From: Eubacterium sp. 1001713B170207_170306_E7
Lineage (GTDB): Bacteria > Bacillota > Clostridia > Eubacteriales > Eubacteriaceae
Reading direction: 5' to 3'
Length of the DNA: 24,000 bases
Assembly (NCBI RefSeq): GCF_015547515.1
Contig: NZ_JADMVE010000001.1
Span: 1,064,253-1,088,252 of the forward strand
Shown: positions 6,440-23,000 of the stretch, in pieces
Layout: each line of letters opens with the position of its first letter
Position numbering within the stretch: the stretch's first letter is position 1
Notes under the pieces: generated by a model
Databases searched by the model: none
What the model was told of the DNA's origin: nothing
The model's input: only the letters and a program-made list of their open reading frames with translations
Translations under genes and position numbers: made by a program

Positions 6440-7895
6440 ATGTCTGATCACATTTATCTCTGCATAGATTTAAAATCATTCTATGCCTCAGTGGAATGTG
6501 TTGAACGTGGTCTTGATCCTTTGACGACCAACCTGGTTGTCGCTGATGTGACGCGTACTCAGAAAACGATCTGCCTGGCTGTCTCCCCTTCTCTGAAAGC
6601 CTATGGCATTCCCGGCAGGCCCCGTCTTTTCGGGTTGAACAAAAATTAAAAGCAATCAAATTGCGAACAGGCGAGGAGATTGCCTATATTACCGCGTCTC
6701 CAAGAATGCAGCTTTACATTGACTACAGTGCCCGGATATATGCGATATATCTTCAATTGTCTCTGAAGAGGACATCCATGTATACAGTATCGACGAAGTT
6801 TTTATGGACTTAACCCATTACCTTTCGACCAATCGCAATAAAAACGGACACCCCATAACTGCTCGCGAGCTGGCAAAAATGATCATTCAGGACGTTTGGG
6901 CAGCTACGGGTATCACCGCTACTGCTGGTATCGGAACCAACCTTTATCTGGCCAAAATCGCTATGGATATTGTGGCAAAACATGTCAAAGCAGATTCAGA
7001 CGGCGTTCGGATTGCCGAGCTCAATGAAACAAACTACCGACAGCTTCTTTGGGATCACCGCCCGCTCACGGATTTCTGGCGTATCGGATGGGGCATTGCC
7101 AAAAGGCTTGAAAAAAACGGGCTCTACACGACGATGGGAGATATCGCCAGAATGAGCTTACAGGGCGCTGACACAAACGGGTATGGTGAAAATCTGCTTT
7201 TCAATGAATTTGGCATTGACGCAGAACTCCTCATTGATCATGCCTGGGGAATTGAACCCTGTACCATGGCCGACATCAAAAGCTATAAGCCCAGCACGCA
7301 CTCTATTTCCTCCGGGCAGGTGCATTCCCATGCCTATGATTTTGAAAAGGGACGGTTGATCGTCCAGGAAATGGTGGAGCTGCTGGTGTACGATCTGATT
7401 GAAAAAGGGCTGTCGACGTCCAGCGTAACCCTGCATATCGGCTATGATAAGGATGGCTTAAAAGAATCTCATTACCGCGGAGGAATTCACATGGATCATT
7501 TCGGGCGTGCAGTACCAAAGCCGGCGCACGGCACCGAAAAGTTAACCGACGCTGGTGGCCAAACGATCTACAGTCATTCAACCAAGAAAATTATGAACGC
7601 TGCCCTTAAGCTCTATGACCGAATCATTGACAGGAAGCTCATGCTGCGAAGGGTTTCTCTGACTTTCAATGATGTCGAAGCCACTGCTGACCATAAGGTA
7701 ACCTGTCGACAAGTCAGTATGTTCGCAGAAGATATCCTGGAAAAAGAGCAGGAAGCTCAAGAGCAAAGGATACAGCAGACGCTGCTTCAAATAAAGAAGA
7801 AATACGGAAACAATGCTATTTTCAAGGGCATGAACCTACAGGAGGGCGCAACGACGATGGAACGAAATCTTCAAATCGGTGGTCATAAAGCTTAA
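6440..7895 (+). pseudogene. Y-family (DinB/UmuC/ImpB-like) DNA polymerase gene interrupted by two apparent 1-nt deletions
   Basis: The N-terminus MSDHIYLCIDLKSFYASVECVERGLDP is in frame 2. VEQKLKAIKLRTGEEIAYITASPRMQLYIDYSARIYAIYLQ runs from 6634 in frame 1. VSEEDIHVYSIDEVFMDLTHYL... runs from 6759 in frame 0 to 7895. The shifts fall at about 6632-6633 (G-run) and about 6757-6758 (T-run). Confidence 0.8.
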
Positions 7896-7955
7896 AATAC
7901 TTTTCAGCACTGTTTAAAGGACACTCTCAAAAGTGCGGGCGTCCTTTTTAATTCA

Positions 7956-8486
7956 TTAACCTTCAATCATTTTTCTTAATTTTTGTAAAATTCTTTTCTT
8001 CTGTTTGTATATTGTGTGGACAGAAACGTCCTGTCGGTTGGCTAACGCCTTCACTGTCTGATCTTCAAAATAAAGCGCTTTAATCAGTGTTGCTTCATCC
8101 TTATTTAGGCGAGATAATGCTTTCCTGAGCTCTTCAAACAACATACTTGCTTCAACAATTTTATTCACATCCACTTCCTTAAAGCTGATTGCCTCTTTTT
8201 CTCGATGTGTTTGTTCTTTTAAAGTCTCATAAGAAATCGCATAATATTCTTCATCTAATGCTTCTAAATAATCTTGCCGCTCCTTAGCGCGATAAAAATC
8301 TTGATAGTTCTGATAATCAACTTCCAGTAAAGCGCCCCCAATTGGTATAAACCATCTGCTGGAAAAGGCTTCTGGATCAAGTTCTTTCATCCTTTTTAAT
8401 TCACCATAAGTAATTTTATGATATTTTGAATGATCTTTTATATAGCAGGCCGCTTCCAGACTAAATTCTCTTGGTTTTCGTTTCAT
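7956..8486 (-). CDS. sigma-70 region-4-containing regulator (Tn916 orf7-like sigma/HTH protein)
   Basis: The C-terminus LNKDEATLIKALYFEDQTVKALANRQDVSVHTIYKQKKRILQKLRK is a sigma-70 region-4 HTH. I moved the start to the ATG at 8486, behind a GGAGGA RBS. The track ORF starts at a TTG at 8498. Confidence 0.7.
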   Translation of the reverse strand: MKRKPREFSLEAACYIKDHSKYHKITYGELKRMKELDPEAFSSRWFIPIGGALLEVDYQNYQDFYRAKERQDYLEALDEEYYAISYETLKEQTHREKEAISFKEVDVNKIVEASMLFEELRKALSRLNKDEATLIKALYFEDQTVKALANRQDVSVHTIYKQKKRILQKLRKMIEG

Positions 8487-8544
8487 TTTTTCCTCCAATC
8501 CATTTGTTTTTAAACAAACGAATTGGAGGCGGACCTCGGATATA

Positions 8545-8599
8545 AAAACACAAAAAAAGATAGAAAATGAAAGCTAAGTTGAACTTTTCATTTTCTATC
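8545..8599 (-). terminator. strong hairpin plus T-run upstream of the sigma-like gene (attenuator/insulator candidate)
   Basis: Perfect 14-bp arms: GATAGAAAATGAAA (8559-8572) and TTTCATTTTCTATC (8586-8599). On the minus strand TTTTTTTGTGTTTTT follows. It lies about 60 nt upstream of the 8486 start codon. Confidence 0.5.
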
Positions 8600-8774
8600 C
8601 TATTTAATCGTAAGCTATTAATAAAAAACAGCCGAAAAATATTCACTTTTTTAATTTTGTAAATTTATTATTTTTGTATGAAATATAACCTCTTTTTGTT
8701 AGTGCGATATATCGTACTCTTTGACTTTTCAAAAAGTATATAATAATTTTAAAGACACTGCTGGAGGACCCTTT

Positions 8775-9020
8775 ATGAATACTACCGAAGCAGTAATCCA
8801 ACGAATTAATGACCTTTGCCAAGAGAAGGGAATTACTTTTTATAAGCTTTCTTATCGGGCAGCTATGTCAAAATCCACCTTAATGAGTATCGTTGCAGGC
8901 AATAGCACGCCTACGATTAAGTCAATTGCATTAATTTGTCGTGGCCTTGATATAAGTGTAAGGGAATTTTTTAGTTCAGAATTATTTGACATTTGCGAAG
9001 AAGATGATGAGCTGCTTTAA
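8775..9020 (+). CDS. XRE-family helix-turn-helix transcriptional regulator
   Basis: The ATG at 8775 has a GGAGGA RBS. ITFYKLSYRAAMSKSTLMSIVAGNSTPTIKSIALICRGLDISVREFF is an Xre/Cro-type HTH. It is divergent from the sigma-like gene. Confidence 0.8.
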   Translation: MNTTEAVIQRINDLCQEKGITFYKLSYRAAMSKSTLMSIVAGNSTPTIKSIALICRGLDISVREFFSSELFDICEEDDELL

Positions 9021-9148
9021 TTACACTATAATTTTTTGAACATTGCTATCATTTGATGCTTTTTTCGATATCTATCTTTTATTTTAGTAATCAGTTAATT
9101 AATATCTTTAACTAATTAAAAAGTTTCAAGCGTGTTGAAGGAGAAGTC

Positions 9149-9868
9149 ATGAATGTAATATTATGTGATGATGACCCTGGCTTTCTTAACGAGTTAAAAG
9201 ACGTACTTTTGCCTATTTACAAAAATGAGTACCCCTCAGCTAAAATAAGATGGTTTTTTAATGGGAATGATCTACTGTCATGGTATACACTTGAAGGCAA
9301 TACCATCGATATTCTTTATATCGATGTAGAGATGCCTGGATTTAATGGAATTGATGTTTTAAAATCCCTTCGCAATAACGGCTGTAAATGTTATTCTGTA
9401 TTCATTTCTTCATATATCAGTTATGTTGAGACCGCTCTGGATTATGATATTGTTCATTATTTAGTAAAACCTCTAAATATAAAAAAGGTTAGAGATGTCA
9501 CTAATAAAGTCATTTTAAAATATAAAAAACAGCATAAATGCATAGAACTCTCTTCAAATAATAAGCATTCATTAATAGAAGTGCACTCAATCATTTATGT
9601 AGAATCAAATTTTAGGTCCCTTATTTATCATACAACTCAGGGAAATTATACTGTGAATGGGAAGATATCTGATATTGAAAATAAGCTGATCCCTTACAAT
9701 TTTCTTCGCACACATAAAAGCTATCTTGTAAACATGGATTATGTTTTAAACTACGAGGGCTACAAGTTTAATCTTTTAGATGGAATGACTGCTGATATCA
9801 GCCATACTAAACGCTCACTGATCATAGGAAAATACAAACAATATTTATATGATAAACTTATCAACTAA
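9149..9868 (+). CDS. agrA: LytTR-family response regulator (AgrA-like)
   Basis: 239 aa with a GAAGGAG RBS. REC domain (ILCDDD..., phospho-acceptor context ILYIDVEMPGFNG). C-terminal LytTR domain (FLRTHKSYLVNMDYV). Confidence 0.9.
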   Translation: MNVILCDDDPGFLNELKDVLLPIYKNEYPSAKIRWFFNGNDLLSWYTLEGNTIDILYIDVEMPGFNGIDVLKSLRNNGCKCYSVFISSYISYVETALDYDIVHYLVKPLNIKKVRDVTNKVILKYKKQHKCIELSSNNKHSLIEVHSIIYVESNFRSLIYHTTQGNYTVNGKISDIENKLIPYNFLRTHKSYLVNMDYVLNYEGYKFNLLDGMTADISHTKRSLIIGKYKQYLYDKLIN

Positions 9869-9875
9869 CTAAGTT

Positions 9876-9925
9876 ATAAGGCGGGTGATACAATAAATTG
9901 CATCACCCGCCTTATTTATTTTTCG
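9876..9925 (+). terminator. rho-independent terminator after agrA (abuts the agrB stop)
   Basis: ATAAGGCGGGTGAT (9876-9889) pairs with ATCACCCGCCTTAT (9902-9915), followed by TTATTTTT. Confidence 0.7.
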
Positions 9926-10494
9926 TTAAATAAATAACCTGCCAAAGCAAAGAGAGCGATTATTAACAGCGATGTGCTAATTGAATATAAATATTGGTAC
10001 AATGTAGTCCCTAAAACTAAAATCATAGAAATACATACATAAACCACTGATCTTAACCATAATTTTTGTCTCTTTCGACAAATCTCATCATCAGAGTAAC
10101 TTGCATTTTTATGCTCTACCGGAGCAATTTTCCATACAATAAAAAAATAAAGAATTTGGTAGATAATAGATAATAAAGTATAAGCATTTCTAGGCGTATA
10201 TTTTATTGTCAAAATATACACGCAAAAGACTAATACTGTTTTTATTGAACAGTTTAGTCTATTTTTCGCATGGTAACTTCCAGTTAAACCACTTAATGAG
10301 ATATAGCAAACAAAATATATAATCGTTTGATACACATGTGAGGTTAATATACCAATACCTAACATTACTAAAAAATTTACCAAAAAGAAAATTATTTGCT
10401 CCATCCCAAACATAACGATTTGTTCATTTTCTGCTCTGATAAGCCTAAGTTCTTTGCACTTATGTGCAAAGCTTAAAGCTACTTGTGTAATCAT
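9916..10494 (-). CDS. agrB: AgrB-like accessory gene regulator B (membrane endopeptidase that processes AgrD)
   Basis: 192 aa and polytopic. The GSYHAKNRLNC motif has His and Cys 7 residues apart, the same spacing as the catalytic His/Cys pair of staphylococcal AgrB. Its start codon overlaps the agrD stop. Confidence 0.85.
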   Translation of the reverse strand: MITQVALSFAHKCKELRLIRAENEQIVMFGMEQIIFFLVNFLVMLGIGILTSHVYQTIIYFVCYISLSGLTGSYHAKNRLNCSIKTVLVFCVYILTIKYTPRNAYTLLSIIYQILYFFIVWKIAPVEHKNASYSDDEICRKRQKLWLRSVVYVCISMILVLGTTLYQYLYSISTSLLIIALFALAGYLFNEK

Positions 10495-10661
10495 AGATCT
10501 TTAATTGAAAAATTTTCTTTGGCTTTTGGTATCTCCGGTTGGTATTTCCAAATTAAACACGTGTCACCTGTTTGCAATACAGTAAATATTAATGCCGACA
10601 TCACTGCCATTCCTTTAAAAAAGATGTTATTAGCTACTTTTTTAAATTTTTCCTTTTTCAT
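10491..10661 (-). CDS. agrD: AgrD-like autoinducing peptide precursor (56 aa, not in the ORF track)
   Basis: Hand translation of the minus strand gives MKKEKFKKVANNIFFKGMAVMSALIFTVLQTGDTCLIWKYQPEIPKAKENFSIKDL. An AGGAGGAG RBS lies 7 nt upstream. There is a single Cys core followed by a YQPEIPK charged tail. The TGA stop overlaps the agrB ATG (ATGA). Confidence 0.75.
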   Translation of the reverse strand: MKKEKFKKVANNIFFKGMAVMSALIFTVLQTGDTCLIWKYQPEIPKAKENFSIKDL

Positions 10662-10742
10662 GTGATTACTCCTCCTAACTATATTTTACATCTTAAATAT
10701 ATAGCTTTATATTCTTTAAAGCAATATTCTATGCATAAAAAT

Positions 10743-10794
10743 AAAGTTTAGTGTAAAAATCATAAAGTTCCTTAAAGCAGAAACAGTGTATAAT
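10743..10794 (+). promoter_or_regulatory. candidate LytTR (AgrA) direct repeats plus -10 upstream of agrC
   Basis: AAAGTTTAG (10743-10751) fits the LytTR consensus [TA][AC][CA]GTTN[AG][TG]. AAAGTTCCT (10764-10772) starts exactly 21 bp later. TATAAT lies at 10789-10794, and the -35 position is occupied by the second repeat. Confidence 0.4.
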
Positions 10795-10828
10795 AGTATT
10801 GAAATGATATTTTAGTGGAGGTTGATAA

Positions 10829-12109
10829 ATGACCGTAGATATTATATGCTTACTAGTCAAAAACTATATTGAAATAATATTTTTAGATTCTGTTTTAATA
10901 AAAAAGCCAATAAGAAAAAAAATTGTCTTTTACTTATATTTTTTATTCTTATCAATATCTTTTACAGTGTTCATGTTTAAATATAATCCCAGTACTGTTT
11001 TATCCACTTCTATAAGTATTGCTATAATGACATCATATTTATTGTTTTATAAAGATAGCTGGCTCAAAAAATTTATATATTTAGTTATTTTAATTGTACT
11101 TGTTGCGGTATCAGAGTTATTGTCTGGCCTAATTCTATTAACAATGGATATTTCGGTCAACACATTTGAGACAAGCCTTCTTTACGGCTTTATTCTCATT
11201 TCACTTACCAGTATTTTACTTTACTCGAATGTTTTACTAGTAAAGATATTAAGTAACAAAGATGTTACAATTAAAATGAATATTTTGTTGCTATTTTATC
11301 CAATAAGCTCGATTTTAATTCTTTATGCACTTTACTATATTGTTATGTTTAATCTAGACAGTGAAATTAAATACGTAATATTTTTCATAGTCGCTTTATT
11401 GGTACTGTTATCAAATTTATTTTTAGTATATTTAATCACTTATCTTGTAAAAAGCAAAACGGACAAGCTACTTTTAGAATATTATGAAAAATGTGAATCG
11501 ATCGAAAAATCATATTTAAGAGAACTTGATGAATCAAAGCAAGAAATAAAACAAATTAATCACGATCTTAAATCACATTTTTTACATTTATTAGGTCTGA
11601 TCAATGCACAAAATTACGATGGTTGCCGTATTTATGTTATGAAGTTTCTTGATCTTTCTAAGCGGATTGATTATCTATTCTCAACTGGTTACGATGGGCT
11701 TGATGCTGTTTTGTCATCAAAAGCTATCATGTCAAAGTCAAAAAATATTTCTTTAAAAACAGTAATTGCAATGCCAACGCGAGAAACCTTAAAAATAAAT
11801 GAAGCAGATATTTCTATCATTAGTTCAAATATCTTAGATAACGCGATTGAGGCCACTGAGCAATGCCTGATAAATGATCGTATTATTGATTTTCAAATAT
11901 GTTATGATGGTAATCTTTCTTATCTGAGAATTTGTTGCCAAAATCCAACAATAAATACTTCAACATCTTACAAAACCACCAAAAAAGATAAAGAAAACCA
12001 TGGCTACGGTTTGACGATTATTAAAAAGATTGCAGAACAATGGGATGGAATGGTACAATATGAAACTACAAATGGTATTTTTTCTATTATTGTATCTTTA
12101 CACAATTAG
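10829..12109 (+). CDS. agrC: AgrC-like (HPK10-type) membrane sensor histidine kinase
   Basis: 426 aa with a GGAGG RBS. About 6-7 N-terminal TM helices. H-box INHDLKSHF, N-box NILDNAIEA, G-box HGYGL. Confidence 0.85.
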   Translation: MTVDIICLLVKNYIEIIFLDSVLIKKPIRKKIVFYLYFLFLSISFTVFMFKYNPSTVLSTSISIAIMTSYLLFYKDSWLKKFIYLVILIVLVAVSELLSGLILLTMDISVNTFETSLLYGFILISLTSILLYSNVLLVKILSNKDVTIKMNILLLFYPISSILILYALYYIVMFNLDSEIKYVIFFIVALLVLLSNLFLVYLITYLVKSKTDKLLLEYYEKCESIEKSYLRELDESKQEIKQINHDLKSHFLHLLGLINAQNYDGCRIYVMKFLDLSKRIDYLFSTGYDGLDAVLSSKAIMSKSKNISLKTVIAMPTRETLKINEADISIISSNILDNAIEATEQCLINDRIIDFQICYDGNLSYLRICCQNPTINTSTSYKTTKKDKENHGYGLTIIKKIAEQWDGMVQYETTNGIFSIIVSLHN

Positions 12110-12199
12110 ACTTTAGATACAGAGGCAAACTTAAAATTGGATAATTATTCATATCCACCACATGACAAAGCTTATACATCGAGATGAAATCAATAATTT

Positions 12200-13330
12200 T
12201 TAACACTTTATGATTTTAAAAAACGATCATCAAAGTATTCAAAAACTTGGCTATCTTGGAAATTGATAGACTTTGTATAATTGGATCAATCCCCGTGTTT
12301 ATCAACCTGAAATTTTAGAAAGCAGGTTTGAGAAAACAAAAATGGCTCTTGCTGATATCACAAATTATCTATATCCTATAGCTAATGTCGATTCCTAATT
12401 ATTGATAATATAACATGTAATTAGGGCTCTATTGACAAACATATTTTTTATGTAATCGAGTCTTAAATTAATTAAGAGTATGAACTCCTCAAGCTCAAAA
12501 TAGAGAATGCCTATTTAAAAGACAATGCTTAAGCGAAGATCGCTTCTGAAAATACGGCGAGAATCATCCAAAGTTTTTGAGAAGCGTTCAAACTGAAAGA
12601 CAATCTCGCTGCAATCGGTTTTTTCGCAGATCTAAACAAGGAATTAGCGAACAAAATACCCAACCTACATAAGGAACACAAATATTTCGGCCATCGCCGT
12701 ATGCCTGCAATTATTCGTAAACAAGAAGCGCGGATTAACAAAAAGAATTTCCAAAGAATGATGTAATAGCATAATACTCAAGTAACATTCTTTATACGGA
12801 AAAGCCGTAAATACAATTTCTACAAGGGAAAACAGGACAAATTACTCCGAATAGAATTCATCAACGTTTTCTTACCTCTGTTCCACATCAGAAGATCTCG
12901 ATAAATGCTATAGAATTCAAGTATTATAAGATAGTTGTATTCAAGCCCTTTCCTAGATATATTCAATGGAGAATTATTAGGCTATGGCATCATCAGAGCC
13001 CTATTTGTAGTCAATATATTGTTTTCACAAAAACAAGCTATTGAAATCACTTCAGACTGTCTGTACAGAAGTATCTTTCACTCAGACTACAGATAAGTCT
13101 TGCCTACGCTTGTGTATTGAGAAACAACAAAATTTTCCAAAGCATATCTTGTAAAGGAAACTGTTGTAGAAAATTTATTTGGCATTTTAAAACGGAAAAT
13201 ATATTATGGAGTCACTTACTATAGCTTTAAGGAGTTGAAAGTGCAATCAAAGAATGTATAAAATACTATAACGAAAAACGTCTCAAAGAGAAATTAGGCT
13301 AAGCGAGTCCGGTTGCAGACAAACTTAGCC
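12200..13330 (+). mobile_element. degenerate IS3-family (IS150-like) insertion sequence remnant
   Basis: Transposase motifs are scattered over several frames with many stops: TLYNWI, LKIENAYLK, GHRRMPAII...INKKNFQRMM, YKGKQ.., ITPNRIHQRF..SVPHQKIS, CKGNC and YYNEKRLKEKLG. Confidence 0.7.
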
Positions 13331-13439
13331 TCTTAGCTACATAAAATGCATAACAGATTGAAATTCTATTGCATAATAAAAGCCTAAATTGGGAGATTGC
13401 ATCAAAAAGGCTGGTCTGAAAAAATTGAAAAGTAAGGGT

Positions 13440-14230
13440 GTTAGTCCGAAAGTTCAAAAGAAGCTAGATCATCCCAGATCTTAGCATAATAACGGCGAAG
13501 GAACTTATTCATCTCAGCGGTTATTTATAGTGGTAAGGTTTGCCTTCAGTGCAGTTACGATCAAGCAATTAGTTGAGGAGTGAATCGGCACTGGCAAAAG
13601 CATCCAGCGTCTGTTTGTGCTTGAAACGCAATGGATCACCAATCTCACCCATAAGCTGAGAGCCGAGTGATTCACCAACACCGGATATTGCCATGACAAC
13701 CGGATATTCTGGAAGCAAGGTTGTAAGGCGGTTTATTTCAGAATAGTTTGCAAGTGCATACATGTTCGTGGTGTTCGTTTGCTTAAAACAATACCCCTGA
13801 TGCCTGCACCATTTGCAGTAACACTTGGTAAAGACTTTCGGGATGTCTTTACGAACGTGGTCCGCATTCCAGAAGATATAAACGAAATCTACATATTTTT
13901 GAGTACCATCTTTATGTATTGGGCTATCAAAGCACTTACGAACACCGGAAAGGGACGGCTTAAGTAGAGCAATAAGGTTCGTTTTTCTACTATGACTCTA
14001 TTTGGAACAGACAATTTAAAGGTTTTAACCCATAACGTATGGTAGTCACAGTGGTATAATCTCGCAAGTCTTCACAGTTGGCAAGGGTATAGTAGTCTTC
14101 ATCGCGTTCGTCTTATCGGTCTTAACTTTGCGGAGAGTTCTGCTGTTGAGATTTATCTGAAACACAGTTGAACGGCGAAGTCCAGAATATTGCTTTTTCA
14201 CTAGACACTACCGATACGTGGTATGGCACT
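13440..14230 (-). mobile_element. degenerate IS110-family transposase remnant
   Basis: Minus-strand fragments RKVKTDKTNAM (N-terminal DEDD domain-like) and ISGVGESLGSQLMGEIGDPLRFKHKQTLDAFA (transposase_20-like), interrupted by stops and frameshifts. Confidence 0.7.
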
Positions 14231-14413
14231 CTTATTTATATTGAAATGCTGTTACAATTTTTGATCTATTCTTTATAATATCCATATAATTTTTAATATT
14301 TCATTTTCAGTAACGTGTATAACTATTTTTATACATTTTTGTTATATAAATTCTCATCGTTTCTAAAAAATGTAAATGCAAAGTTTTTTATTCTTATGTG
14401 TATTGTGATTATT

Positions 14414-15049
14414 TCAATTTATAATTTTTTTATCTTTTATTTGATATATTTCATCACATAATATTGATATATCTTTTGAATTATGACTTGTAAATATTAA
14501 TGTCCCACCGTTATCCACGTATTTTAATAATATTTCATATATCAAATCAACCGTATCACTATCTAGCCCATTCGTTGGTTCATCCAAAATTAATAATTCT
14601 GGATTTTCGAAAATAGCCTGTGCAATTCGAAGTTTTTGTAGCATTCCTAAAGAATAATCTTTAACTTTTATTTCGCTATACTTATCAAGTTTAAAAGTAC
14701 GTAAAATGTCTTGGATTTGTTTTTCTGTTACAACATTTTTAATTTCTGATATTATTTTCAGGTTTTCGTACCCGGTTAAAGATTCAATAAAAGATGGATT
14801 ATCTATTACAATACCTGAGTTTTGTATAAACTGTATATCCCTTCGAATTATAGAATTATTATACTTCACTATCCCCTCATCTAAACAATAAAAACCAACA
14901 ATCAATTTAAGTAAAACACTTTTTCCTGATCCATTATTCCCTATAATTCCATATTTCTTTCCACGAATAACTTTTAAATTTATATTTTCTAACACAATTT
15001 TGTTATGAAATGACTTCTTACCATCTATAATTTCAATTAAATATTTCAA
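14414..15049 (-). CDS. ABC transporter ATP-binding protein
   Basis: 211 aa. TTG start behind a GGAGA RBS. Walker A GNNGSGKS, signature YSLGMLQKL, Walker B LLILDEP, H-loop TSHN. Confidence 0.9.
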   Translation of the reverse strand: MKYLIEIIDGKKSFHNKIVLENINLKVIRGKKYGIIGNNGSGKSVLLKLIVGFYCLDEGIVKYNNSIIRRDIQFIQNSGIVIDNPSFIESLTGYENLKIISEIKNVVTEKQIQDILRTFKLDKYSEIKVKDYSLGMLQKLRIAQAIFENPELLILDEPTNGLDSDTVDLIYEILLKYVDNGGTLIFTSHNSKDISILCDEIYQIKDKKIIN

Positions 15050-15148
15050 TTTATTTTCTCCTTAACACTTTATATGATATTGTACAGTATCTAGTCATAA
15101 CAGTAGCGGTTCAATTTCTTTATTTATAATTATATGAATCTTATACTT

Positions 15149-15739
15149 TTAAAAATTTAGGTCTGTTAATTTAATTATTTTATGCAATACAATTGCAATA
15201 GTAAATGTAATGATATAAGATATTGATATGCAAATAGTGTTCATTCCAAAGTAAGAGGTGATAAATATAAAGGGTGTCGGAACCGCGAGTATCATCGATA
15301 TAAAAACATATACTAAAAGAACAATTAACGTTTTAATCTTACCGTATTTTATGAATAACAATGCTTCTAAAAATCCAAAAAGGTTCATATTAACAAATGT
15401 AAATAGTGTAAAATATAATAGATCCTGTATCGAGAGTGGTGCAATTTTTGTATTGAGTATATTTCCAAAATAGTATGGAAAAACACATAAAATTATTACA
15501 AAACAACTAAGCTTTAAATTTTTTTTTATTGAATATTTATAATAACTTTTTAAAGTACCATATCGAATTAAAGAAAAATAACGACTCATTTTAGGAGGAA
15601 AAAAATTACAAATAATAAAAATGCCATATATAATTAATGTACTAAAAAAAATACTAAAAAACCAAGTTGGTTTTGTAATGAAACCTAGTAAACCAAAAAC
15701 TAACCATGTTAATAAACCAATCCTTTTATTAATAGCCAT
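15149..15739 (-). CDS. small polytopic membrane protein (putative ABC-2/LanG-like permease subunit)
   Basis: 196 aa with about 5-6 hydrophobic helices and a GGAGAGG RBS. It overlaps the upstream gene by 11 nt. No family is recognised by eye. Confidence 0.65.
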   Translation of the reverse strand: MAINKRIGLLTWLVFGLLGFITKPTWFFSIFFSTLIIYGIFIICNFFPPKMSRYFSLIRYGTLKSYYKYSIKKNLKLSCFVIILCVFPYYFGNILNTKIAPLSIQDLLYFTLFTFVNMNLFGFLEALLFIKYGKIKTLIVLLVYVFISMILAVPTPFIFITSYFGMNTICISISYIITFTIAIVLHKIIKLTDLNF

Positions 15740-16538
15740 CTATATCGCCTCTCCTTTTTAGATATCTTTGAATATATGCAACAAAAATAATCGGTGGCAC
15801 AAATGGAAATAATATTACCCATAATGGTTGACCATTCTGATATGAAGTAAATGATTGAATAATTGTCGGTGATAAAGCAAAGACTTTAAAACAAATACCG
15901 AAAATTATTGAGAAAATATAATAATACAGTAACGGAATTATTATTGATAGGTATTTCTTTTTTGTAATGCACACAATAGAATTAGAAAAAAGGCTATATA
16001 TGAAACAAAATACGAAATACTTAAGGATTCCTTCTATAAAATAATACATGTATAAATGCTCCGTTGAAAAATTTTTTCCAAATATAAAATCAAATGAAAT
16101 TCTTGGTATTTCAGTATAATTCTTAGTAACAAATATACCAATGATGAAAAAAATCAAATATGCAATTAGAAATGTCAAGGCAGTATAAAGTGCATTAATA
16201 AAAAGTGCTTTACGAATAGTTTTTATATAGGTTTTATTTCTAGAAAAACAGTATATAAAATAACCTTCCTTTTCTTGATAAAAACTTAATGATAATATAG
16301 AACAAAAAATAGGTAAAATTAGCATGGAATAATTAAACGATGTACTAATATAACTATCAAAGTTAAGATAATGCTCGAGTAAAAATATTTTATTATCAAT
16401 GCCATCGTTATCGAAAATTATTCTTAATAAATAAAAATCATAACTACTAAATAAAGATAAAAAGGTTCCAATCAAAAAGCATAAAAAAAGAGTTACTCTA
16501 TACTTGTTTATTATCCGATATTTTGAAATTAATTTCAT
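15729..16538 (-). CDS. polytopic membrane protein (putative ABC-2/LanE-like permease subunit)
   Basis: I chose the ATG at 16538 (MKLISKYR...) behind an AAGAGG RBS. About 6 hydrophobic helices. It is translationally coupled to the next gene. Confidence 0.65.
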   Translation of the reverse strand: MKLISKYRIINKYRVTLFLCFLIGTFLSLFSSYDFYLLRIIFDNDGIDNKIFLLEHYLNFDSYISTSFNYSMLILPIFCSILSLSFYQEKEGYFIYCFSRNKTYIKTIRKALFINALYTALTFLIAYLIFFIIGIFVTKNYTEIPRISFDFIFGKNFSTEHLYMYYFIEGILKYFVFCFIYSLFSNSIVCITKKKYLSIIIPLLYYYIFSIIFGICFKVFALSPTIIQSFTSYQNGQPLWVILFPFVPPIIFVAYIQRYLKRRGDIDGY

Positions 16539-16667
16539 AGTGCAAACCTCTTTTGTATAAAATATATTATAGTATAAAATGAAATAGAGCATATCTACTA
16601 AAGTCTAACTTCTTTACTTGTAATCCTAAAAATATAGTATTTGAAATTCTTACTCTAGCTTTTATGG

Positions 16668-16708
16668 TTTTTAAAAATCACAAAGAGAGCGAAAGTCACT
16701 CTCTTTGT
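16668..16708 (-). terminator. rho-independent terminator between the secreted-protein gene and the ABC genes
   Basis: ACAAAGAGAG (16680-16689) pairs with CTCTCTTTGT (16699-16708). TTTTT follows on the minus strand. Confidence 0.8.
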
Positions 16709-16716
16709 AAAACCTT

Positions 16717-17259
16717 CTAAAATGGAGACCAGGTGCCTTCACAATACTCATAAGAATCCCAGCTATTTTCTCTGACAAACATCATTTGATAAGCGTAGTT
16801 CTTTGTTGCTGTGGACCATCCAGAGTTTGCTGATTGAGCGGCAACTTTGCACGCACCTCTTGCATAACCATCTGAATTAAGTAAATTTGTAACTAATACC
16901 AATGAATTCCCACCGGTTGCGTATTTGAAAGTTACATAATACTCTTGAGTATCCTCTTGTTTTGTTTGAAATGTACTGTAACCACGGTTTGTACCACTTA
17001 CTTGTCCGCTCCACGAATGTACAAACCACATTCTAGGAGAAATTGATTCGTCAAAAATTTCATAGGTTTCCTGACCAGGATTAGCCTCCACAACATCTTT
17101 GATCTTTTTATCTAGATCTGGTTTATCGCCTAAACCTTCGGAAATAATCGGCTGCTCCATTTTGTCTGGACTTTGAACTTCCATTTCATTAGCAAATACT
17201 GGTACAGCAACAAATAAAGCTAACAAAAGTGTGCTAACGCTAACAATTAACTTTTTCAT
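16717..17259 (-). CDS. Sec-secreted protein of unknown family (candidate bacteriocin/toxin-like effector)
   Basis: I chose the ATG at 17259. Signal peptide MKKLIVSVSTLLLALFVAVPVFA with a predicted cut before NE. An acidic ~55-aa linker precedes a ~110-aa W/Y/G/S-rich C-terminal domain with two Cys. Confidence 0.7.
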   Translation of the reverse strand: MKKLIVSVSTLLLALFVAVPVFANEMEVQSPDKMEQPIISEGLGDKPDLDKKIKDVVEANPGQETYEIFDESISPRMWFVHSWSGQVSGTNRGYSTFQTKQEDTQEYYVTFKYATGGNSLVLVTNLLNSDGYARGACKVAAQSANSGWSTATKNYAYQMMFVRENSWDSYEYCEGTWSPF

Positions 17260-17373
17260 TTTAGTATCCTTTCTATGAATTAAATACAAATATCCAATAT
17301 TAGGTATTTATTTTACATTTCAATGGAATCACCTTCTTTTTTTTGAGTAATTACAAATTAATTTGTTGATTGC

Positions 17374-17402
17374 ATTATATAACGATTACATTCAATACTC
17401 AA
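17374..17402 (-). promoter_or_regulatory. sigma-A-type promoter candidate for the secreted-protein gene
   Basis: The minus strand has TTGAGT (plus-strand coordinates 17397-17402), a 17-nt spacer, then TATAAT (17374-17379). Confidence 0.45.
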
Positions 17403-17427
17403 CAGCCTTTTATCGAACGCAATATAT

Positions 17428-17500
17428 CTTGTAACAAAAAGATAATAACTTATAATAAAGGACTTGTTAACAAAACTAGCTTTTCGTTTTTTGTTACATC
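17428..17500. promoter_or_regulatory. array of three TTGT-N(1-2)-ACAA palindromic motifs upstream of the -35
   Basis: TTGTAACAA at 17429-17437, TTGTTAACAA at 17464-17473 (a perfect 10-bp palindrome), and TTGTTACA at 17491-17498. The outer pair form a perfect 11-bp inverted repeat, TGTAACAAAAA / TTTTTGTTACA. Confidence 0.4.
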
Positions 17501-18404
17501 TAAAATAGCAATACCCTATAAACGAATGGTTGATCTTCGGTTGATTCTGTAATCATGACTAAAGTGTTGCTTGTTAGATTTTGGTACAGCATAAAATCAG
17601 AAAGTTAGGATAGAGATTCAGTCAAATTTTACATATCGTTAGCTCTTTAGACTATATTTAGAGGATATAGTACAGAATCATTCTGTATATAATCGGAGCC
17701 ACTGTAGACGCTTTTATAATGATGTTTTTTATGTTCGATTTCCACTGAAATTGTAATGAAATATATTGAATTCGATTTTGTGACGACTGAAGAAATTATG
17801 GCGGATGATACTTATCTGCTGTAAATGACGTTCAATAACTCATTCAAGACAGACCGTATCGAAAGGAATGTAGCGCTATCTGGATGCTTTGGATTAGGAA
17901 TTTTCGAAGCAGACTGGCTTTAGTAACCCGAGACAGGAGTCAGAGAAGTAACGGTACAAATAAGTGCAACAGATAGAGATTGTTGTTGTATCAATCAGCA
18001 TTATAAAAAATTAACTAGATGTTTCATGGAAGGGACTATAGATTGTTATTGTTGCATCATAATGGAAGGCCATATTTTTCTACAAACTAAAGGCGCTTAT
18101 GTTTAGCTGAGCCCACCCGAAAGCTAAATAAGAATAAAAGATACAGGATAAAATGAAAGAATTAACGGACCTATTCGTTTAAACAATAAGCAATCAATAA
18201 AAATATTTTAGCAAGAGTAACCTTTATCCTTATAGGGTCATTTTAACTATTTCTTTTTACTTCTTCTTCAGTAAATCTTTGTTTGTATATATATAATAAT
18301 TTTATAAACAAATATATTTTTATAATTAAAATATTAAATTCAATTTTTTAAAAAAGTCGTCTTTTTTTGATAAACAAAAAAAGAGAAAAGCCATCTCCTG
18401 TTTA

Positions 18405-19045
18405 AAAAGGACGAATTAAAACGGAATGTCAAAGAGTTGGTCAATACAGATGCCTTGGTGCCTGAGAACCATTTGCTGCGCCATATTGATCAGACCGCTG
18501 TCTTTACTTGTGTTTATGACTTTGTTGAAGGGCTTTATTGTCCCGATAATGGTCGCCCCAGTATGGAGACTATGGTGCTTGATTAAGATAGTTTTGATCC
18601 AACATCTTTATGGCCTTCCTTCGCTGCGCCAGACCGTTCGAGACATTGACATGAACATTACTTATCGGTGGTTTCTGGCGATTCCACTCAATAAACCCAT
18701 TCCTCATTTTGCAACCATCGACTATACGTTCAGACATCAGTTTACTAAAAAGGTAGTGGAACAAGTCTTTACCTGGATTTTATTCGAAGTGGAAGCCGCC
18801 GGTTATCTCAAACCCGAGGTGGGCTTTGTGAACCCAAAACCAACGCCAACCTGAAAAAAGTCAGTAAAGCCATTTTCGGCGCCGCAAACCCTATGAGAAA
18901 CAGCTGTTCGAAGAAGTCAACCAGGATCGGGTGATCAACGCATCGACAACGGATCCGGAAAGCGAAGTTTTCCATAAAGGCAAGCAACGCCAGTGCTTTG
19001 CTTACAATGTACACACCGTATGTGAGAGAAACAACTTTGTGATCT
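18405..19045 (+). mobile_element. truncated, frameshifted IS1182/IS5-like transposase remnant (N-terminal part only)
   Basis: LVPENHLLRHIDQTAVF..YDFVEGLYCPDNGRPSMETMVL is followed by a frameshift, then IKIVLIQHLYGLPSLRQTVRDIDMNITYRWFL...PHFATI. Later fragments are STTDPESEVFHKGKQRQCFAYNVHTVCERNNFVI. Confidence 0.7.
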
Positions 19046-19260
19046 GAAAATCTTTCCACTCCTTTGTTTCTGTATCTTTTTCTTAGCAGGTTTTATTGAT
19101 TGAGTAATCTCCAAAATTGTATAATCAGATAACTCGTTTTTCATAACTTTTTCTCTTTTTTAAATCAACATTTTGTCTTATGATTCTTTTGACATAACTA
19201 TTTAATAATTATTTTTTCATGATTATCATACTAATCTAAAATTTCCTGGATTCCACAACC

Positions 19261-19689
19261 TTATCTCATTTTTTTATCAGCTTTTGAGGATATATTCCGG
19301 ATATAACCATAATCATGTCCTAATTCTATAGATATTTCAACTAAGCTTTTCCCTAAATAACGATGTGCATAGAAAACTTTTTTTTCTAAACTTCCCATAT
19401 GATTAATTGCTTCTTCTATCGTTTTTTTTGTTTTATTTAATAAATAAATTTCTCTGTCTTTTTCTTCGATTTTTTTTTGTAATAAACATATTTCCTGTTC
19501 AATGGAAATTCGTTCTTCAATGTGCTTGTAAGAAATAAATTTTTTCTTTTCAAATAACCTTTCTTTTCTTCTTATATAGCGATCTTTTTCAGCTTGCTGA
19601 ATTGCTAATTCCTGTTTTAAATCTACTATATTTATATCTTTATAAGTTTTGCTAGGCTTTTCTTTATCCTTTTTTTGCCGCATATTCAT
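19261..19689 (-). CDS. coiled-coil protein with C-terminal sigma-70 region-4-like HTH (phage late-regulator-like)
   Basis: 142 aa. LEKKVFYAHRYLGKSLVEISIELGHDYGYIRNISSKADKK resembles a sigma region 4. The RBS is weak. Confidence 0.55.
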   Translation of the reverse strand: MNMRQKKDKEKPSKTYKDINIVDLKQELAIQQAEKDRYIRRKERLFEKKKFISYKHIEERISIEQEICLLQKKIEEKDREIYLLNKTKKTIEEAINHMGSLEKKVFYAHRYLGKSLVEISIELGHDYGYIRNISSKADKKMR

Positions 19690-19795
19690 CTTTATTTTTA
19701 GGAACCTTTCTCAATAATAAAAAGTCAGATTGACAAAATGCTTTTACTCAAATCCTTATTATTAATATCTATATAACTATACTAAAACTAATCAT

Positions 19796-20434
19796 TTAAT
19801 AATTGTTAACGCTCTGGTCTATTCTCAACATAATGCTAAATTGAATTTCATTTGCTGTACATACATCAGGTGTATAGCTAATCCCTTCTACTTTATCAAT
19901 CAACAAAGTGTTCTGTTGAGCATTTTCGATCAATACTTTTAACTTTTCATCTTGATATTGTGGCATAACCGGCTCAATCAAATATCTTACAACATTTTCA
20001 ATGTATTCTGTGCGATCATCTTCAAATTTTGCTAATCCTTTATACGTGATATGAAAGATCACTATTTTTTCTTTCTCCCCTTCATCATTAAGATAAAGGC
20101 CATCGTTATCAGACAACGTTACGATGGTAGACTTTATTCCGGATACATTCAAGATATTTTCATAAACTGTTTGAGAGTTTGAACTGTCTATTGGTTCCCA
20201 ACTTGTATAATTTTCAGTTGCTGCATAAAGCTCATTATATGACTCAATATATATATCGGATGAAGTTTTTGGATTAGTTTTTATGTTTTTCTTTTCATTC
20301 TCGATTTCTTTAGTAATAGAAGTATCTGAATTAATTTGACTTAATACTCCCCATGAAAGAAGCACAAAGGAAAGAAATAGCAATAATAATACAACTGAAA
20401 GACATAAAAAACAAATTTTTAACTTTTTTTTCAT
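19796..20434 (-). CDS. N-terminally membrane-anchored extracytoplasmic protein, unknown function
   Basis: 212 aa. MKKKLKICFLCLSVVLLLLFLSFVLLSW forms an anchor or uncleaved signal. The remainder is acidic and soluble. No family is recognised. Confidence 0.65.
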   Translation of the reverse strand: MKKKLKICFLCLSVVLLLLFLSFVLLSWGVLSQINSDTSITKEIENEKKNIKTNPKTSSDIYIESYNELYAATENYTSWEPIDSSNSQTVYENILNVSGIKSTIVTLSDNDGLYLNDEGEKEKIVIFHITYKGLAKFEDDRTEYIENVVRYLIEPVMPQYQDEKLKVLIENAQQNTLLIDKVEGISYTPDVCTANEIQFSIMLRIDQSVNNY

Positions 20435-20471
20435 AGTTTAACCCCTATACTTAAATATTAAATAATTCAAG

Positions 20472-20497
20472 AGAGAAGGAGCCCTAGCTCCTTCTCT
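20472..20497 (-). terminator. hairpin terminator after the 626-aa gene
   Basis: AGAGAAGGAGC (20472-20482) pairs with GCTCCTTCTCT (20487-20497) across a 4-nt loop. The downstream tract is only moderately T-rich. Confidence 0.6.
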
Positions 20498-20501
20498 AAA
20501 A

Positions 20502-22382
20502 CTAAATTAAATAATCTGTTGTAATCCAAACATCAAAATTCCCTGGCGTTAGACCCATTCCTGGTACCTTTGATGTATATCTAAAATAGTAAATTTCGCC
20601 ATAGACAACGCTGAAATGCACCTCGCTTGTTCCACCATTCGATATAGAAATAAAACCTAATGTTTCTCCTGTACTGGCGCATACTAATTCTAATTCGCCA
20701 ACCCCACTTGTGTTATTTGAAAAGTAATCAGCATGAACACGCATACCTGTTGCTAAAACTCTAAATCCACGTCCACTACCACTTGTAAATTGTTTTAAAC
20801 TACCCAAGTAAGTATAAGAGTCACCGTCACGGATATTTCTGGTTGCTGCCTCAACAAAAACAGGATTGCTCAATAAACTTGTAACAGCTGGATACTGTCC
20901 TGAATAAGCCACCTTGTCTAAATCCCAATTATCAACACTATATTCGTGAAATTGATCATAAGTCCAATTATCGGGAATTCTGTAACCCATATTACCGCTA
21001 TAACCTGTAGACATGTCACTAACAAAGGAAGTAACTGCATAATGATTACTGATTACTGCACGACTCGTTGCTCTAGTTCCATAAACACCAATTTTATAGG
21101 GTGATCCTAATGTATCCATCTTGTCTTTCAGTGCCTCAAAATATGGCAAAACGGTACTGTTAATCATATCTTCTGTAGCATCAAAATCGACAGCGAAAAA
21201 TATTACATTACCGCTTGGAATTCCGTGAACATTCGCTTGATGAACTGCTGTTTCCGCATCACGCCTTCCATTTTGTTCTGTAAAGTATTCTAGTGCCGCC
21301 TCAATGTTACCGGGAGATTCCTGAAAAATCGGAAAGAATTGAACTCCTGCCGATAAGATTCTTTGCGGCTCGCCCATTCTAAGTTCTTTAAAATCTCCAC
21401 CAGTAAGATATCTCCCTACAATTTGGTGACCTTGTGAAAGAATATACTGTAATCGCCCTGTTGTCATCTCAAAACGCGTATCACAGGCCAAACTACCTCG
21501 ATCTGGATTTCCTTTACTTAATAATAAAGACATCCAGGTATTGACATCTACTGTGCCTGTTTCTGGTAAAGCTAAATCACTTTGGAATTCGGTAATTTTA
21601 GCTGCTAATGCTGAATCCCAAGTTGAACTCAGTATGTTGACATCATAACCATTGCATACCAACGCATAGCGTGCAAGAAATACTGCTTCACTATTACCCG
21701 AAGACGGTAGTAAAATATGAATTAAATTTGCTTTCGTTCCATCTCCAAAATTTCCAGTCGCATCTTCAACACTATATCCTTCAATAGCTTGGAGAACTTT
21801 AATCATCGAGTCATTCATTTTGCGTCCATAAAGACCATCGCAAGGCGATAATCCAATATAATTTTCATATTTTGAATTTAACGTCCGTTGTATTGCCGCA
21901 ATTTGTATCGTACCACCATAGTCACTCAATACTTTAAATTGATCCATTGATAATAGCGCTTTCATAACGTTTAAAGTAACTGTACCATTTGTCGCATTAA
22001 TCCCAGCGTCTTCTTTTAATTCCATCACACCAGCAGCAGTTCCAGATCTGAAAAATTTGGTAATTTCACTGGTTCCCGTAGAATATCCTTTACACCATAA
22101 CCCGCACTGAATAATTCCATACACATTATTCAGTGTTTTATCGTTGTCTTCTTGTGGCACAACTCCATTTGGGTATCTTTGCTTGAATTTTGAAATTGTC
22201 CCATCACCAAAGTTATCTGCAGTCTCTTGTATTCCTAATTCAATCTGCAAAGCTCTTATCAAACCATTTATTGTTCCCCAACCGGTTTGTCCATCTTCAG
22301 TTACTGTTGGAAATCGATCGTAACCATAGCTTCCATAATTTGAATTCAACCACATTTGTGATTTTTTTACCATTGCATCCAT
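20502..22382 (-). CDS. leaderless multidomain cell-wall protein: PG-binding-like repeats, DUF1906 (Rv2525c-like glycoside-hydrolase fold) and an unknown C-terminal beta-rich domain
   Basis: I chose the ATG at 22382 behind an AGGAAGGAAG RBS. Repeated ...GxxGxGT...L(I/Q)xxLG... modules are followed by GRYLTGG...FPIFQ...VIFFAVDFDA...IGVYG, which is typical of DUF1906. There is no signal peptide. Confidence 0.75.
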   Translation of the reverse strand: MDAMVKKSQMWLNSNYGSYGYDRFPTVTEDGQTGWGTINGLIRALQIELGIQETADNFGDGTISKFKQRYPNGVVPQEDNDKTLNNVYGIIQCGLWCKGYSTGTSEITKFFRSGTAAGVMELKEDAGINATNGTVTLNVMKALLSMDQFKVLSDYGGTIQIAAIQRTLNSKYENYIGLSPCDGLYGRKMNDSMIKVLQAIEGYSVEDATGNFGDGTKANLIHILLPSSGNSEAVFLARYALVCNGYDVNILSSTWDSALAAKITEFQSDLALPETGTVDVNTWMSLLLSKGNPDRGSLACDTRFEMTTGRLQYILSQGHQIVGRYLTGGDFKELRMGEPQRILSAGVQFFPIFQESPGNIEAALEYFTEQNGRRDAETAVHQANVHGIPSGNVIFFAVDFDATEDMINSTVLPYFEALKDKMDTLGSPYKIGVYGTRATSRAVISNHYAVTSFVSDMSTGYSGNMGYRIPDNWTYDQFHEYSVDNWDLDKVAYSGQYPAVTSLLSNPVFVEAATRNIRDGDSYTYLGSLKQFTSGSGRGFRVLATGMRVHADYFSNNTSGVGELELVCASTGETLGFISISNGGTSEVHFSVVYGEIYYFRYTSKVPGMGLTPGNFDVWITTDYLI

Positions 22383-22587
22383 TTTAACAACTTCCTTCCT
22401 AAATTTTTTCAAAAAGTCTTTCAAAAATATTTTTGTACTAGCACACCTTAATATTACCCTGTTTATAGAGCGCATTCAAGTATTTTACCCTATTTTTATA
22501 TCAAAATGTAATCAACGCAAATAATCATGTAACTAAGTTCCAATTAAACTTCGCTGTAATCTATCCATTTAGTTCAGTTCCATAAAC

Positions 22588-22622
22588 ATAAAATAAAAAG
22601 CTGACACCATAAATTTGTCAGC
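22588..22622 (-). terminator. orphan minus-strand terminator upstream of the 626-aa gene
   Basis: GCTGACA (22600-22606) pairs with TGTCAGC (22616-22622). TTTTTATTTT follows on the minus strand. No minus-strand gene lies upstream of it. Confidence 0.5.
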
Positions 22623-22763
22623 CCAGTTTATAATCAATTATTAATATTATCATACTTAGCCAGACTGAAAAAACATGTGACAATTTGTGTACAGCATATT
22701 GTCAAAAATCATGCTAAGATAAAAGTGTCAGTTGAAGAGCCTGCTTTATCTGGAGGTGATCAT

Positions 22764-23000
22764 GTGTCTGAGTTTCAGACCATCATAATAATTGTGGGAA
22801 TCCTCACAAGTATAGCCTTCGGATTTGTTATTTATCGCGATAATGTTAAAAATGAAGGAAAACAGATGGGTGCTTTAAAAAACGATATAAAGCATTTGAA
22901 TGAACAAGTCATTTCTAATCAAAATGAAATAAGGGAATTAGATAAGAAAATACAAAAAACGACAGAGCAATTGACACGTTTTGAGGAACGGATTAAGTAG
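22764..23000 (+). CDS. small N-terminal-TM plus coiled-coil protein of the lysis cassette
   Basis: I chose the GTG at 22764, 7 nt after a GGAGGTG RBS. TM segment IIIIVGILTSIAFGFVIY, then a heptad-like KNDIKHLNEQVISNQNEIRELDKKIQKTTEQL. The position just before the holin is typical of phage lysis accessory proteins. Confidence 0.55.
   Translation: MSEFQTIIIIVGILTSIAFGFVIYRDNVKNEGKQMGALKNDIKHLNEQVISNQNEIRELDKKIQKTTEQLTRFEERIK

Follow-up and report, generated by a model that had tools for sequence, protein, structure and literature searches.

In a 24,000-nucleotide stretch of the genome of Eubacterium sp. 1001713B170207_170306_E7 (contig NZ_JADMVE010000001.1, positions 1,064,253 to 1,088,252; hereafter, the window), four open reading frames (ORFs) on the minus strand encode, in this order, a secreted protein, two membrane proteins (p1 and p2) and an ATP-binding cassette (ABC) ATPase, with a hairpin located between the first of these genes and the other three (Table 1). 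The four ORFs had been listed in a preliminary description of this DNA, and all were confirmed. The genomic island that carries this cassette is also present in five metagenomic contigs (L001-L005), at about 88% nucleotide identity. In the comparison with L001, the ratio of nonsynonymous to synonymous substitutions (dN/dS) is 0.12 for the secreted-protein gene, 0.15 for p1 and 0.32 for p2, and the ATPase protein is 92% identical. Thus, all four genes are maintained by selection.

The secreted protein is identical to WP_195267921.1, a hypothetical protein of Eubacterium sp. that has 180 amino acids (aa) in its NCBI form. An in-frame TTG at 17289 is the start of the listed 190-aa ORF, and the ATG is preceded by a GGA-rich ribosome-binding site. 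The N-terminus, MKKLIVSVSTLLLALFVAVPVFA|NEME, combines a positively charged start, a hydrophobic core and a V-F-A cleavage site, that is, a classical Sec signal as judged by eye and in a hydropathy scan, in agreement with the preliminary description. The signal peptide is followed by an acidic linker and a W/Y/G/S-rich domain of about 104 aa with two Cys residues. The linker and the Cys pair, both singled out earlier, are present in the window protein but are restricted to the window lineage and are not features of the family. Each family member consists of a signal peptide, which has an AXA-like cleavage site and lacks a lipobox, and a domain of about 100 aa; of six mature domains, four are basic, with an isoelectric point (pI) of 9.2-10.3.

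The secreted protein has no match in Pfam, NCBIfam, PHROG or PADLOC, and no meaningful match among PDB sequences, whether a single sequence or a profile was used as the query. When the window protein and seven family members were scanned against Pfam and NCBIfam, no hit was obtained even at E <= 10. A word-indexed protein search retrieved only the query itself, and the same search with the family profile only the known members. A match of the secreted domain to a known non-toxic family, which had been named earlier as an outcome that would speak against a toxin, was not found; the only matches are to generic jelly-roll folds. A class III bacteriolysin of the enterolysin A or zoocin A type was considered and rejected because the secreted protein contains no peptidoglycan-hydrolase or any other Pfam domain; the PG_binding and hydrolase proteins of the island are encoded by separate genes (20502-22475 and 23266 onward).

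Structure prediction with AlphaFold2 on a six-sequence alignment yielded an all-beta sandwich of 7-8 strands, with a predicted local distance difference test score (pLDDT) of 78.9 and a predicted template-modelling score of 0.71; the single-sequence model was too poor for use (pLDDT 48). The best Foldseek match of the predicted model in the PDB is the YPM superantigen (1pm4; E = 6e-4, template-modelling (TM) score 0.56). The other PDB matches are Ena2A fibres, GOLD domains, PirA, CBM36, the C-terminal jelly-roll of Tk-subtilisin, a collagen-binding domain and a lectin similar to tumour necrosis factor (TNF-like lectin). All of these are weak, with TM scores of 0.45-0.6 and identities of 7-17%. 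In the viral fold library, only generic jelly-roll or tail-fibre-like and unannotated matches were detected. The predicted fold is, accordingly, that of a small binding- or toxin-type jelly-roll, which cannot be assigned to a specific family within this class.

Four remote relatives of the secreted protein (P0004-P0007; 129-136 aa; E 2e-8 to 1e-4) were identified when 1.84 billion cluster representatives were searched exhaustively with HMMER; they align with residues 79-178 of the query only. A scan of GTDB genomes with a p1 profile added a 142-aa member in a metagenome-assembled genome (MAG) of Christensenellaceae and placed P0005 and P0008 in Lachnospira MAGs, and proteins of Ca. Fimimorpha faecalis and of Clostridiales bacterium CHKCI001 belong to the P0007 cluster (812 assembly-collection blocks). 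The identity of the secreted domain across lineages is 26-35%. The lineages in which gene order could be checked are Eubacterium sp., Lachnospira (L008-L012, L017 and L018), Christensenellaceae (L016), Ca. Fimimorpha faecalis (L015 and L019-L022) and two metagenomic ones; the other loci are L001-L005, L006/L007 and L013/L014. The order is the same in all of them: secreted-protein gene, hairpin, p1, p2, a third membrane protein (p3; lacking in the window lineage) and ATPase. In every lineage, the gene that directly follows the secreted-protein gene encodes a p1 homolog starting with KYRxxNKYR, and p2, p3 (225-238 aa) and an ATPase of about 212 aa follow wherever the contig extends. Thus, the co-occurrence check suggested in the preliminary description came out in favor of linkage, the secreted-protein gene being joined to the ABC genes (hereafter, the pump genes) in every lineage checked. 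The flanking genes are wholly different: in the window, the cassette is part of a mobile island, whereas it adjoins spoIIR and DUF1934 in Lachnospira, era and recO in Ca. Fimimorpha faecalis, and an XRE regulator in the Christensenellaceae MAG. Therefore, the conserved unit consists of exactly the secreted-protein gene and the ABC genes. Because the p1 relatives were sought with word or pattern seeds, by which members can be missed, the family is likely to be larger than the present list; the secreted-protein alignment is too divergent for pattern scans.

The hairpin is the second conserved trait of these loci. In the window, a 15-pair stem (16710-16678) is followed by TTTTTAAAAA; the folding energy is -22.1 kcal/mol, with z = -6.1 against shuffled sequences, which bears out the strong terminator reported previously. 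A perfect stem of 15-19 base pairs followed by a T-rich run is found after the secreted-protein gene in the window, L006, L008/L017, L013, L015 and L016. The z values in the six lineages folded range from -4.4 to -9.8, and the stem sequences are unrelated. That the structure is kept although the sequence is not suggests that an attenuator or a stabilizer is under selection. An attenuator would yield the first product in large excess over the pump. A putative sigma-70-like promoter of the secreted-protein gene was assigned by consensus match only, and about 230 nucleotides (nt) around it are conserved in L001. A scan of the window against Rfam identified no RNA family.

The leader of the secreted-protein gene (17300-17366, minus strand) contains, immediately 3' of the -10 box, a perfect palindrome, ACAAATTAATTTGT, whose single occurrence in the window does not exceed the chance expectation. 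The leader also contains a 7-codon upstream ORF (TTG AAA TGT AAA ATA AAT ACC TAA) with a strong Shine-Dalgarno sequence. Both elements are retained in L001.

In a hydropathy scan, p1 has about 6 transmembrane segments (TM1 to TM6), preceded, in the scan and the alignment, by the amphipathic N-terminal KYRxxNKYR segment, and p2 has about 5-6. The p1 relatives are 29-35% identical and share an ExxGxFxxxxxR motif after TM2 (alignment A3). The first outside loop of p1 is rich in indels, and an invariant Arg lies in the cytoplasmic stretch after TM2. Both p2 and p3 contain a similar R-Y/F motif at the same place. From this pattern in the sequences, we infer that the stretch may be a coupling region facing the acidic E-loop of the ATPase described below. 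The p2 proteins of the window and the relatives are weakly homologous (BLASTP E = 0.002; hhalign E = 0.0016 over 162 columns). A p3 gene was found in L006, L008/L017, L016, L019 and, as its start only, in L013. The two-permease composition given in the preliminary description is, therefore, valid for the window but not for the family, whose other lineages carry three membrane proteins; the window version is a reduced form. The remaining genes of the p3-less lineage of the window and L001 are still under purifying selection. Neither p1 nor p2, as a single sequence or as a profile, matches anything in Pfam, NCBIfam, PADLOC, PHROGs or PDB sequences. Comparison of p1, p2 and p3 with hhalign gave only weak and ambiguous scores, by which the three are not demonstrably paralogous. 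Scans of viral contigs and Joint Genome Institute (JGI) metagenomes with p1 found nothing, and the word-indexed protein search with p1 retrieved two relatives.

The ATPase (PF00005, 4e-28) has intact Walker A, Walker B and H-loop motifs and the signature YSLGMLQKL. The best NCBIfam model for the window ATPase is TIGR03740, lantibiotic protection (150 bits), with DrrA next (128 bits). TIGR03740 ranks first for all three family ATPases scanned (window, L006 and L008), at 150-168 bits compared with about 125-130 bits for DrrA. The nearest solved nucleotide-binding domains (NBDs) are those of ABCA1, ABCA3 and ABCA4, which places the ATPase in the ABC-2/type V exporter branch. At the Q-loop position, where a canonical ATPase from the same Lachnospira contig, used as the reference in alignment A6, has Gln (GFVFQNF), the family has an acidic residue: Glu in L006, L008 and L017 (IIIES, IIIEQ) and, as a conservative substitution, Asp (VIDNP) in the window and L001. 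A Glu in this place has been described as the hallmark (E-loop) of LanF immunity ATPases, which require it for immunity, whereas their ATP hydrolysis does not depend on it (bioRxiv 10.1101/2025.10.09.681468).

In three Lachnospira loci (L023-L025), a poly-A run in signal-peptide codons 7-9 is shortened from A8 to A7, so that translation ends after eight codons. Only two residues differ in the remainder of the ORF, and the four downstream genes are intact. Among the Lachnospira contigs, about 65 have 110-aa gene calls compared with about 52 with the intact 133-aa form; the 110-aa forms were read at the DNA level for P0010 only (L023-L025). Because the pump is kept where the secreted-protein gene is frameshifted, it does not depend on the secreted protein. 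The A8/A7 difference could reflect phase-variable production, or common non-producers that keep the pump. Phase variation and toxin loss both fit a toxin/immunity pair better than a protein required by the pump.

Two types of known systems resemble the cassette. In the lactococcin 972 and streptococcin loci, a gene for a Sec-secreted beta-sandwich protein is followed by genes for a membrane protein and an ABC ATPase (PMC4055356, PMC11796350). As in these loci (scbABC in the case of streptococcin), an unmodified Sec-secreted protein, in the cassette a predicted beta-sandwich, comes first and is followed by membrane protein(s) and an ABC ATPase of presumed immunity function, with neither modification enzymes nor a dedicated exporter. 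The secreted protein is, however, not lactococcin 972, as already stated in the preliminary description: the hhalign probability is 0.2% (alignment A4; the comparison sequence was verified as 2LGN), PF09683 and TIGR01653 give no match, and the top 50 fold matches in the PDB do not include 2LGN; the likeness is at the level of class, not of fold family. The domain is about 104 aa long compared with 66 aa in lactococcin 972, two or three small novel membrane proteins replace a single large FtsX-like one, and the ATPase is of the ABC-2/LanF rather than the MacB type (TIGR03608, 97.8 bits against a cut-off of 254.85).

With LanFEG transporters such as NisFEG and NukFEG, the cassette shares one ATPase combined with two or more different small polytopic membrane subunits, TIGR03740 as the best model, the acidic Q-loop residue, an SxGMxQ-type signature, and linkage to a secreted antimicrobial-like product. 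Unlike in LanFEG, the permease genes come first and the ATPase gene last, most members have a third membrane protein, and the window ATPase has Asp, not Glu, at the E-loop position. There is, further, no lanthipeptide precursor and no LanB, LanC or LanM gene; among the ORFs of at least 90 aa in the 24-kb window, we detected no lanthipeptide or radical S-adenosylmethionine (SAM) enzyme and no gene for ribosomally synthesized and post-translationally modified peptides (RiPPs). YPM (1pm4) and PirA (3x0t/7fcn) are similar to the secreted protein in size (about 100-120 aa), signal peptide and jelly-roll topology, with Foldseek E values of 6e-4 to 6e-3, TM scores of 0.5-0.56, identities of 8-14% and root-mean-square deviations of 4-6 Å. 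Unlike the cassette protein, both act on animal cells and are unlinked to ABC immunity genes. The combination of a secreted antimicrobial protein with ABC self-protection is known, whereas the components, the make-up with three membrane subunits in most members, and the presence of an E-loop ATPase outside lantibiotic loci are not. When the literature was searched for a described Sec-dependent bacteriocin of jelly-roll fold that is paired with ABC immunity, nothing relevant was returned.

Taken together, the strict synteny, the conserved hairpin, the free secreted proteins, the LanF-like ATPases, the parallel with lactococcin 972, the loss of the putative toxin with retention of the pump, the purifying selection and the island context lead us to propose, with moderate confidence, that the cassette represents a new family of Sec-dependent protein bacteriocins with LanFEG-like ABC immunity. 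As context, we count the location of the window copy on a low-GC (guanine plus cytosine), integrase-bearing island and the second ABC cluster at L008 (see below). The more specific proposal of a new jelly-roll bacteriocin family in gut Clostridia, with LanF-type immunity involving three membrane subunits and on/off switching at the poly-A run, is put forward more tentatively.

Under the proposed mechanism, the product of the first gene would be exported unmodified through Sec, and its jelly-roll domain of about 12 kDa would act extracellularly, probably through binding to a component of the cell envelope in related bacteria. In the window strain, the acidic 53-aa N-terminal extension may serve as a pro-region. 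The hairpin would keep the transcript of the secreted-protein gene abundant, with only a fraction of the transcription, or a separate weak promoter, reaching the pump genes. These would encode a LanFEG-like complex (type V, ABC-2) composed of a homodimeric acidic-E-loop ATPase and two or, in most cases, three membrane subunits, which would clear the secreted protein from the membrane of the producer.

The fold matches could also point to a different function. CBM36, the TNF-like lectin, the collagen-binding domain and the Ena2A spore-appendage fibres would all suit a non-toxic component of the envelope or matrix (surface, biofilm or spore), with the ABC-2 complex exporting its glycan or another ligand. 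ABC-2/type V transporters commonly export glycans and lipids, which, along with the ABCA-like NBD, agrees with such a role, and so does the observation that all hosts are Clostridia and that the Lachnospira locus adjoins spoIIR. However, every one of these fold matches is weak, the surroundings of the cassette hold no conserved glycosyltransferase or polysaccharide genes, Ena-type proteins are not known to be secreted via Sec, and the family is patchy and, in the window, located on a mobile island. We regard an envelope function as unlikely. Still less probable appears a resistance or detoxification module, in which the ABC complex would expel an external antimicrobial, for example a lantibiotic or a peptide of the host, and the secreted jelly-roll protein would be a binding helper akin to LanI or LanH. 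In favor of such a module are the LanF-like ATPase with its E-loop and the cooperation of LanI-type binding proteins with LanFEG (bioRxiv 10.1101/2025.10.09.681468); moreover, the Ca. Fimimorpha faecalis locus lies in a core region and adjoins a second ABC-2 transporter, and the window contains no lantibiotic or RiPP biosynthesis genes. But no family member has a lipobox, so that the protein would diffuse away rather than protect the producer. Further, the top 50 fold matches include no LanI structure (SpaI, NisI), conservation of a two-component sensor beside the cassette is lacking, the hairpin implies a large excess of the secreted protein over the pump, and the pump persists where the secreted-protein gene is frameshifted.

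That the secreted protein and the ABC genes are unrelated neighbors brought together by insertion sequence (IS) activity could be suspected from the IS remnants flanking the segment, its inversion relative to the related islands, and the terminator that parts the first gene from the rest. We consider this highly improbable, given that the gene order and the hairpin recur in at least 5 other lineages, at about 30% identity and in unrelated contexts; such identities also argue against recent transfer of a single block among the relatives. The remaining probability is assigned to functions other than the bacteriocin/immunity pair and these three alternatives.

Several observations weigh against the bacteriocin proposal, which is an inference from architecture and thus concerns a candidate toxin only. 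The generic jelly-roll is common to lectins, carbohydrate-binding modules, GOLD domains and spore fibres. The window domain is mildly acidic (pI 5.7; 4.6 for the full mature protein). The bit scores of the ATPases against TIGR03740 (150 for the window, 168 for L006 and L008) are far below the cut-off of 309.75, and neither p1 nor p2 matches the models of LanE/LanG (MutE/MutG), FtsX or ABC2_membrane permeases. The LanFEG-like character suggested in the preliminary description is borne out for the ATPase, by its top match to TIGR03740 and its acidic Q-loop residue, but not for the permeases. The p3 gene is missing in the window and L001-L003, and there only, with a 99-nt spacer remaining in its place. 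A hairpin after the first gene is common also in importer operons and operons with an abundant subunit. Finally, the cassette of Ca. Fimimorpha faecalis, next to era/recO, is apparently a core locus with little variation, which is unusual for a strain-variable bacteriocin.

Gut Lachnospiraceae and their relatives are major commensals whose mutual competition is poorly known. Standard bacteriocin-mining tools, being built on known families, would miss the cassette, in which three or four proteins are without a match to any curated model. Should the secreted protein prove to be a bacteriocin, it would provide a new protein scaffold for narrow-spectrum killing among anaerobes and extend LanFEG-type E-loop immunity pumps beyond lantibiotics to a folded protein, and the succession of secreted-protein gene, hairpin and p1 would be a simple marker for finding more such systems. 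As Ca. Fimimorpha faecalis is present in hundreds of assemblies, the family may be ecologically relevant despite the small number of its sequence clusters. Even if the protein proves not to be toxic, its strictly conserved linkage, as a secreted jelly-roll, to an unusual ABC complex would define an unexplained module.

Table 1. Features of the cassette, the surrounding island and the loci used for comparison. Positions refer to the window unless a locus is named.
Feature	Position	Strand	Remarks
Secreted-protein gene	17259-16717	minus	180 aa from ATG (ORF list)
Signal peptide	17259-17191		residues 1-23 of the secreted protein
Acidic linker	17190-17032		residues 24-76 (53 aa); pI 4.2; lineage-specific
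Predicted jelly-roll domain	17031-16720		residues 77-180 (~104 aa); conserved part of the secreted protein
Putative sigma-70-like promoter of the secreted-protein gene	17374-17402	minus	TTGAGT, 17-nt spacer, TATAAT; consensus scan 10/12
Hairpin terminator/attenuator and T-run	16668-16710	minus	between the secreted-protein gene and the pump genes
p1 membrane protein	16538-15729	minus	269 aa (ORF list)
p2 membrane protein	15739-15149	minus	196 aa; 11-nt overlap with p1
99-nt gap	15050-15148	minus	slot of p3 (225-238 aa) in relatives
ABC ATPase	15049-14414	minus	211 aa, TTG start
Poly-A tract (A8/A7)	L023-L025, about 4950-4960; L017, 5502-5530		L017: intact comparison
Cassette segment	14204-18091		3.9 kb; inverted relative to L001-L003 (blastn)
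IS110-type Transposase_20 fragment	13569-13763
DUF772 transposase fragment	18426-18854
Tyrosine integrase	4196-5452
Truncated Y-family polymerase gene	6804-7895
Sigma-like protein	7956-8498
Sigma-like protein	19261-19689		small, sigma-region-4
Phage-type lysis genes	20502-22475, 22677-23000, 23266 onward
agr response regulator	9149-9868
AgrB	9916-10494
AgrD	10491-10661	minus	56 aa; upstream of and overlapping agrB; L001 4574-4744
agr sensor kinase (agrC)	10829-12109	plus	L001 4913-6193
L006 flanking ORFs	L006: 1112-1474, 5366-5758, 5761-6588	minus (all)

The island spans a low-GC region at about 4,000-23,000, where the GC fraction is mostly 0.25-0.38 compared with about 0.5 in the flanks, apart from a patch near 0.47 at 6,500-8,000. 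In addition to the genes in Table 1, it encodes a helix-turn-helix (HTH) protein, and a 657-aa peptidoglycan-binding/glycosidase protein has a strong PHROG match. The island is probably an integrative element or a decayed prophage. The IS remnants reported on both sides of the cassette were recognized as IS110-type and DUF772 fragments. The inverted segment between them comprises the cassette and an upstream region of about 600 nt and corresponds to positions 7182-11252 of L001; no convincing inverted repeats that could explain the inversion were found. The islands of L001-L003 are otherwise collinear with that of the window, and in these, the cassette follows agrC at a distance of about 2 kb and is oriented like it.

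The agr module noted in the preliminary description is indeed located about 2.3 kb from the cassette, but a link between the two is unsupported outside this island: in the other lineages with readable flanks, there is no agr module beside the cassette. There are no LytTR-type direct repeats upstream of the secreted-protein gene and none common to the agr and secreted-gene promoters. Two exact copies of TTCYTTAAAGCA (10712-10723 and 10768-10779), 56 nt apart, are present in the divergent agrD/agrC promoter region and may constitute a regulator-binding repeat; no copy was found near the cassette. With both LytTR repeats and TTCYTTAAAGCA absent at the cassette, agr control is unsupported by sequence, although it is possible within the window island. 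The predicted pheromone region of AgrD is DTCLIWKYQPEIP in the window and DTCFIWKYQPEIP in L001, and the sensor kinases are 82% identical compared with 95% for the response regulators. This looks like the divergence of agr specificity groups.

Additional secreted-protein and transporter genes adjoin the cassette in some of the relatives. Next after the cassette of Ca. Fimimorpha faecalis (L019, 10658-12507) come genes for a second ABC ATPase and for an ABC2_membrane_2/DUF2705 permease; the latter is divided between two ORFs in some contigs, and L020 has one ORF of 372 aa. In some Lachnospira strains, a second module lies directly upstream of the cassette (L008, 2914-7578; absent in L017) and encodes a 126-aa signal-peptide protein, a 318-aa lipoprotein-like protein, two FtsX-type permeases and a MacB-type ATPase that scores 232 bits against the lactococcin-972 ABC model (cut-off 255). 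This module may be another secreted-protein/ABC pair. At L006, the genes flanking the cassette encode two small Cys-rich proteins with signal peptides (120 and 130 aa) and a protein of 275 aa with a single transmembrane segment, none of which matches Pfam; this locus may be a cluster of secreted effectors.

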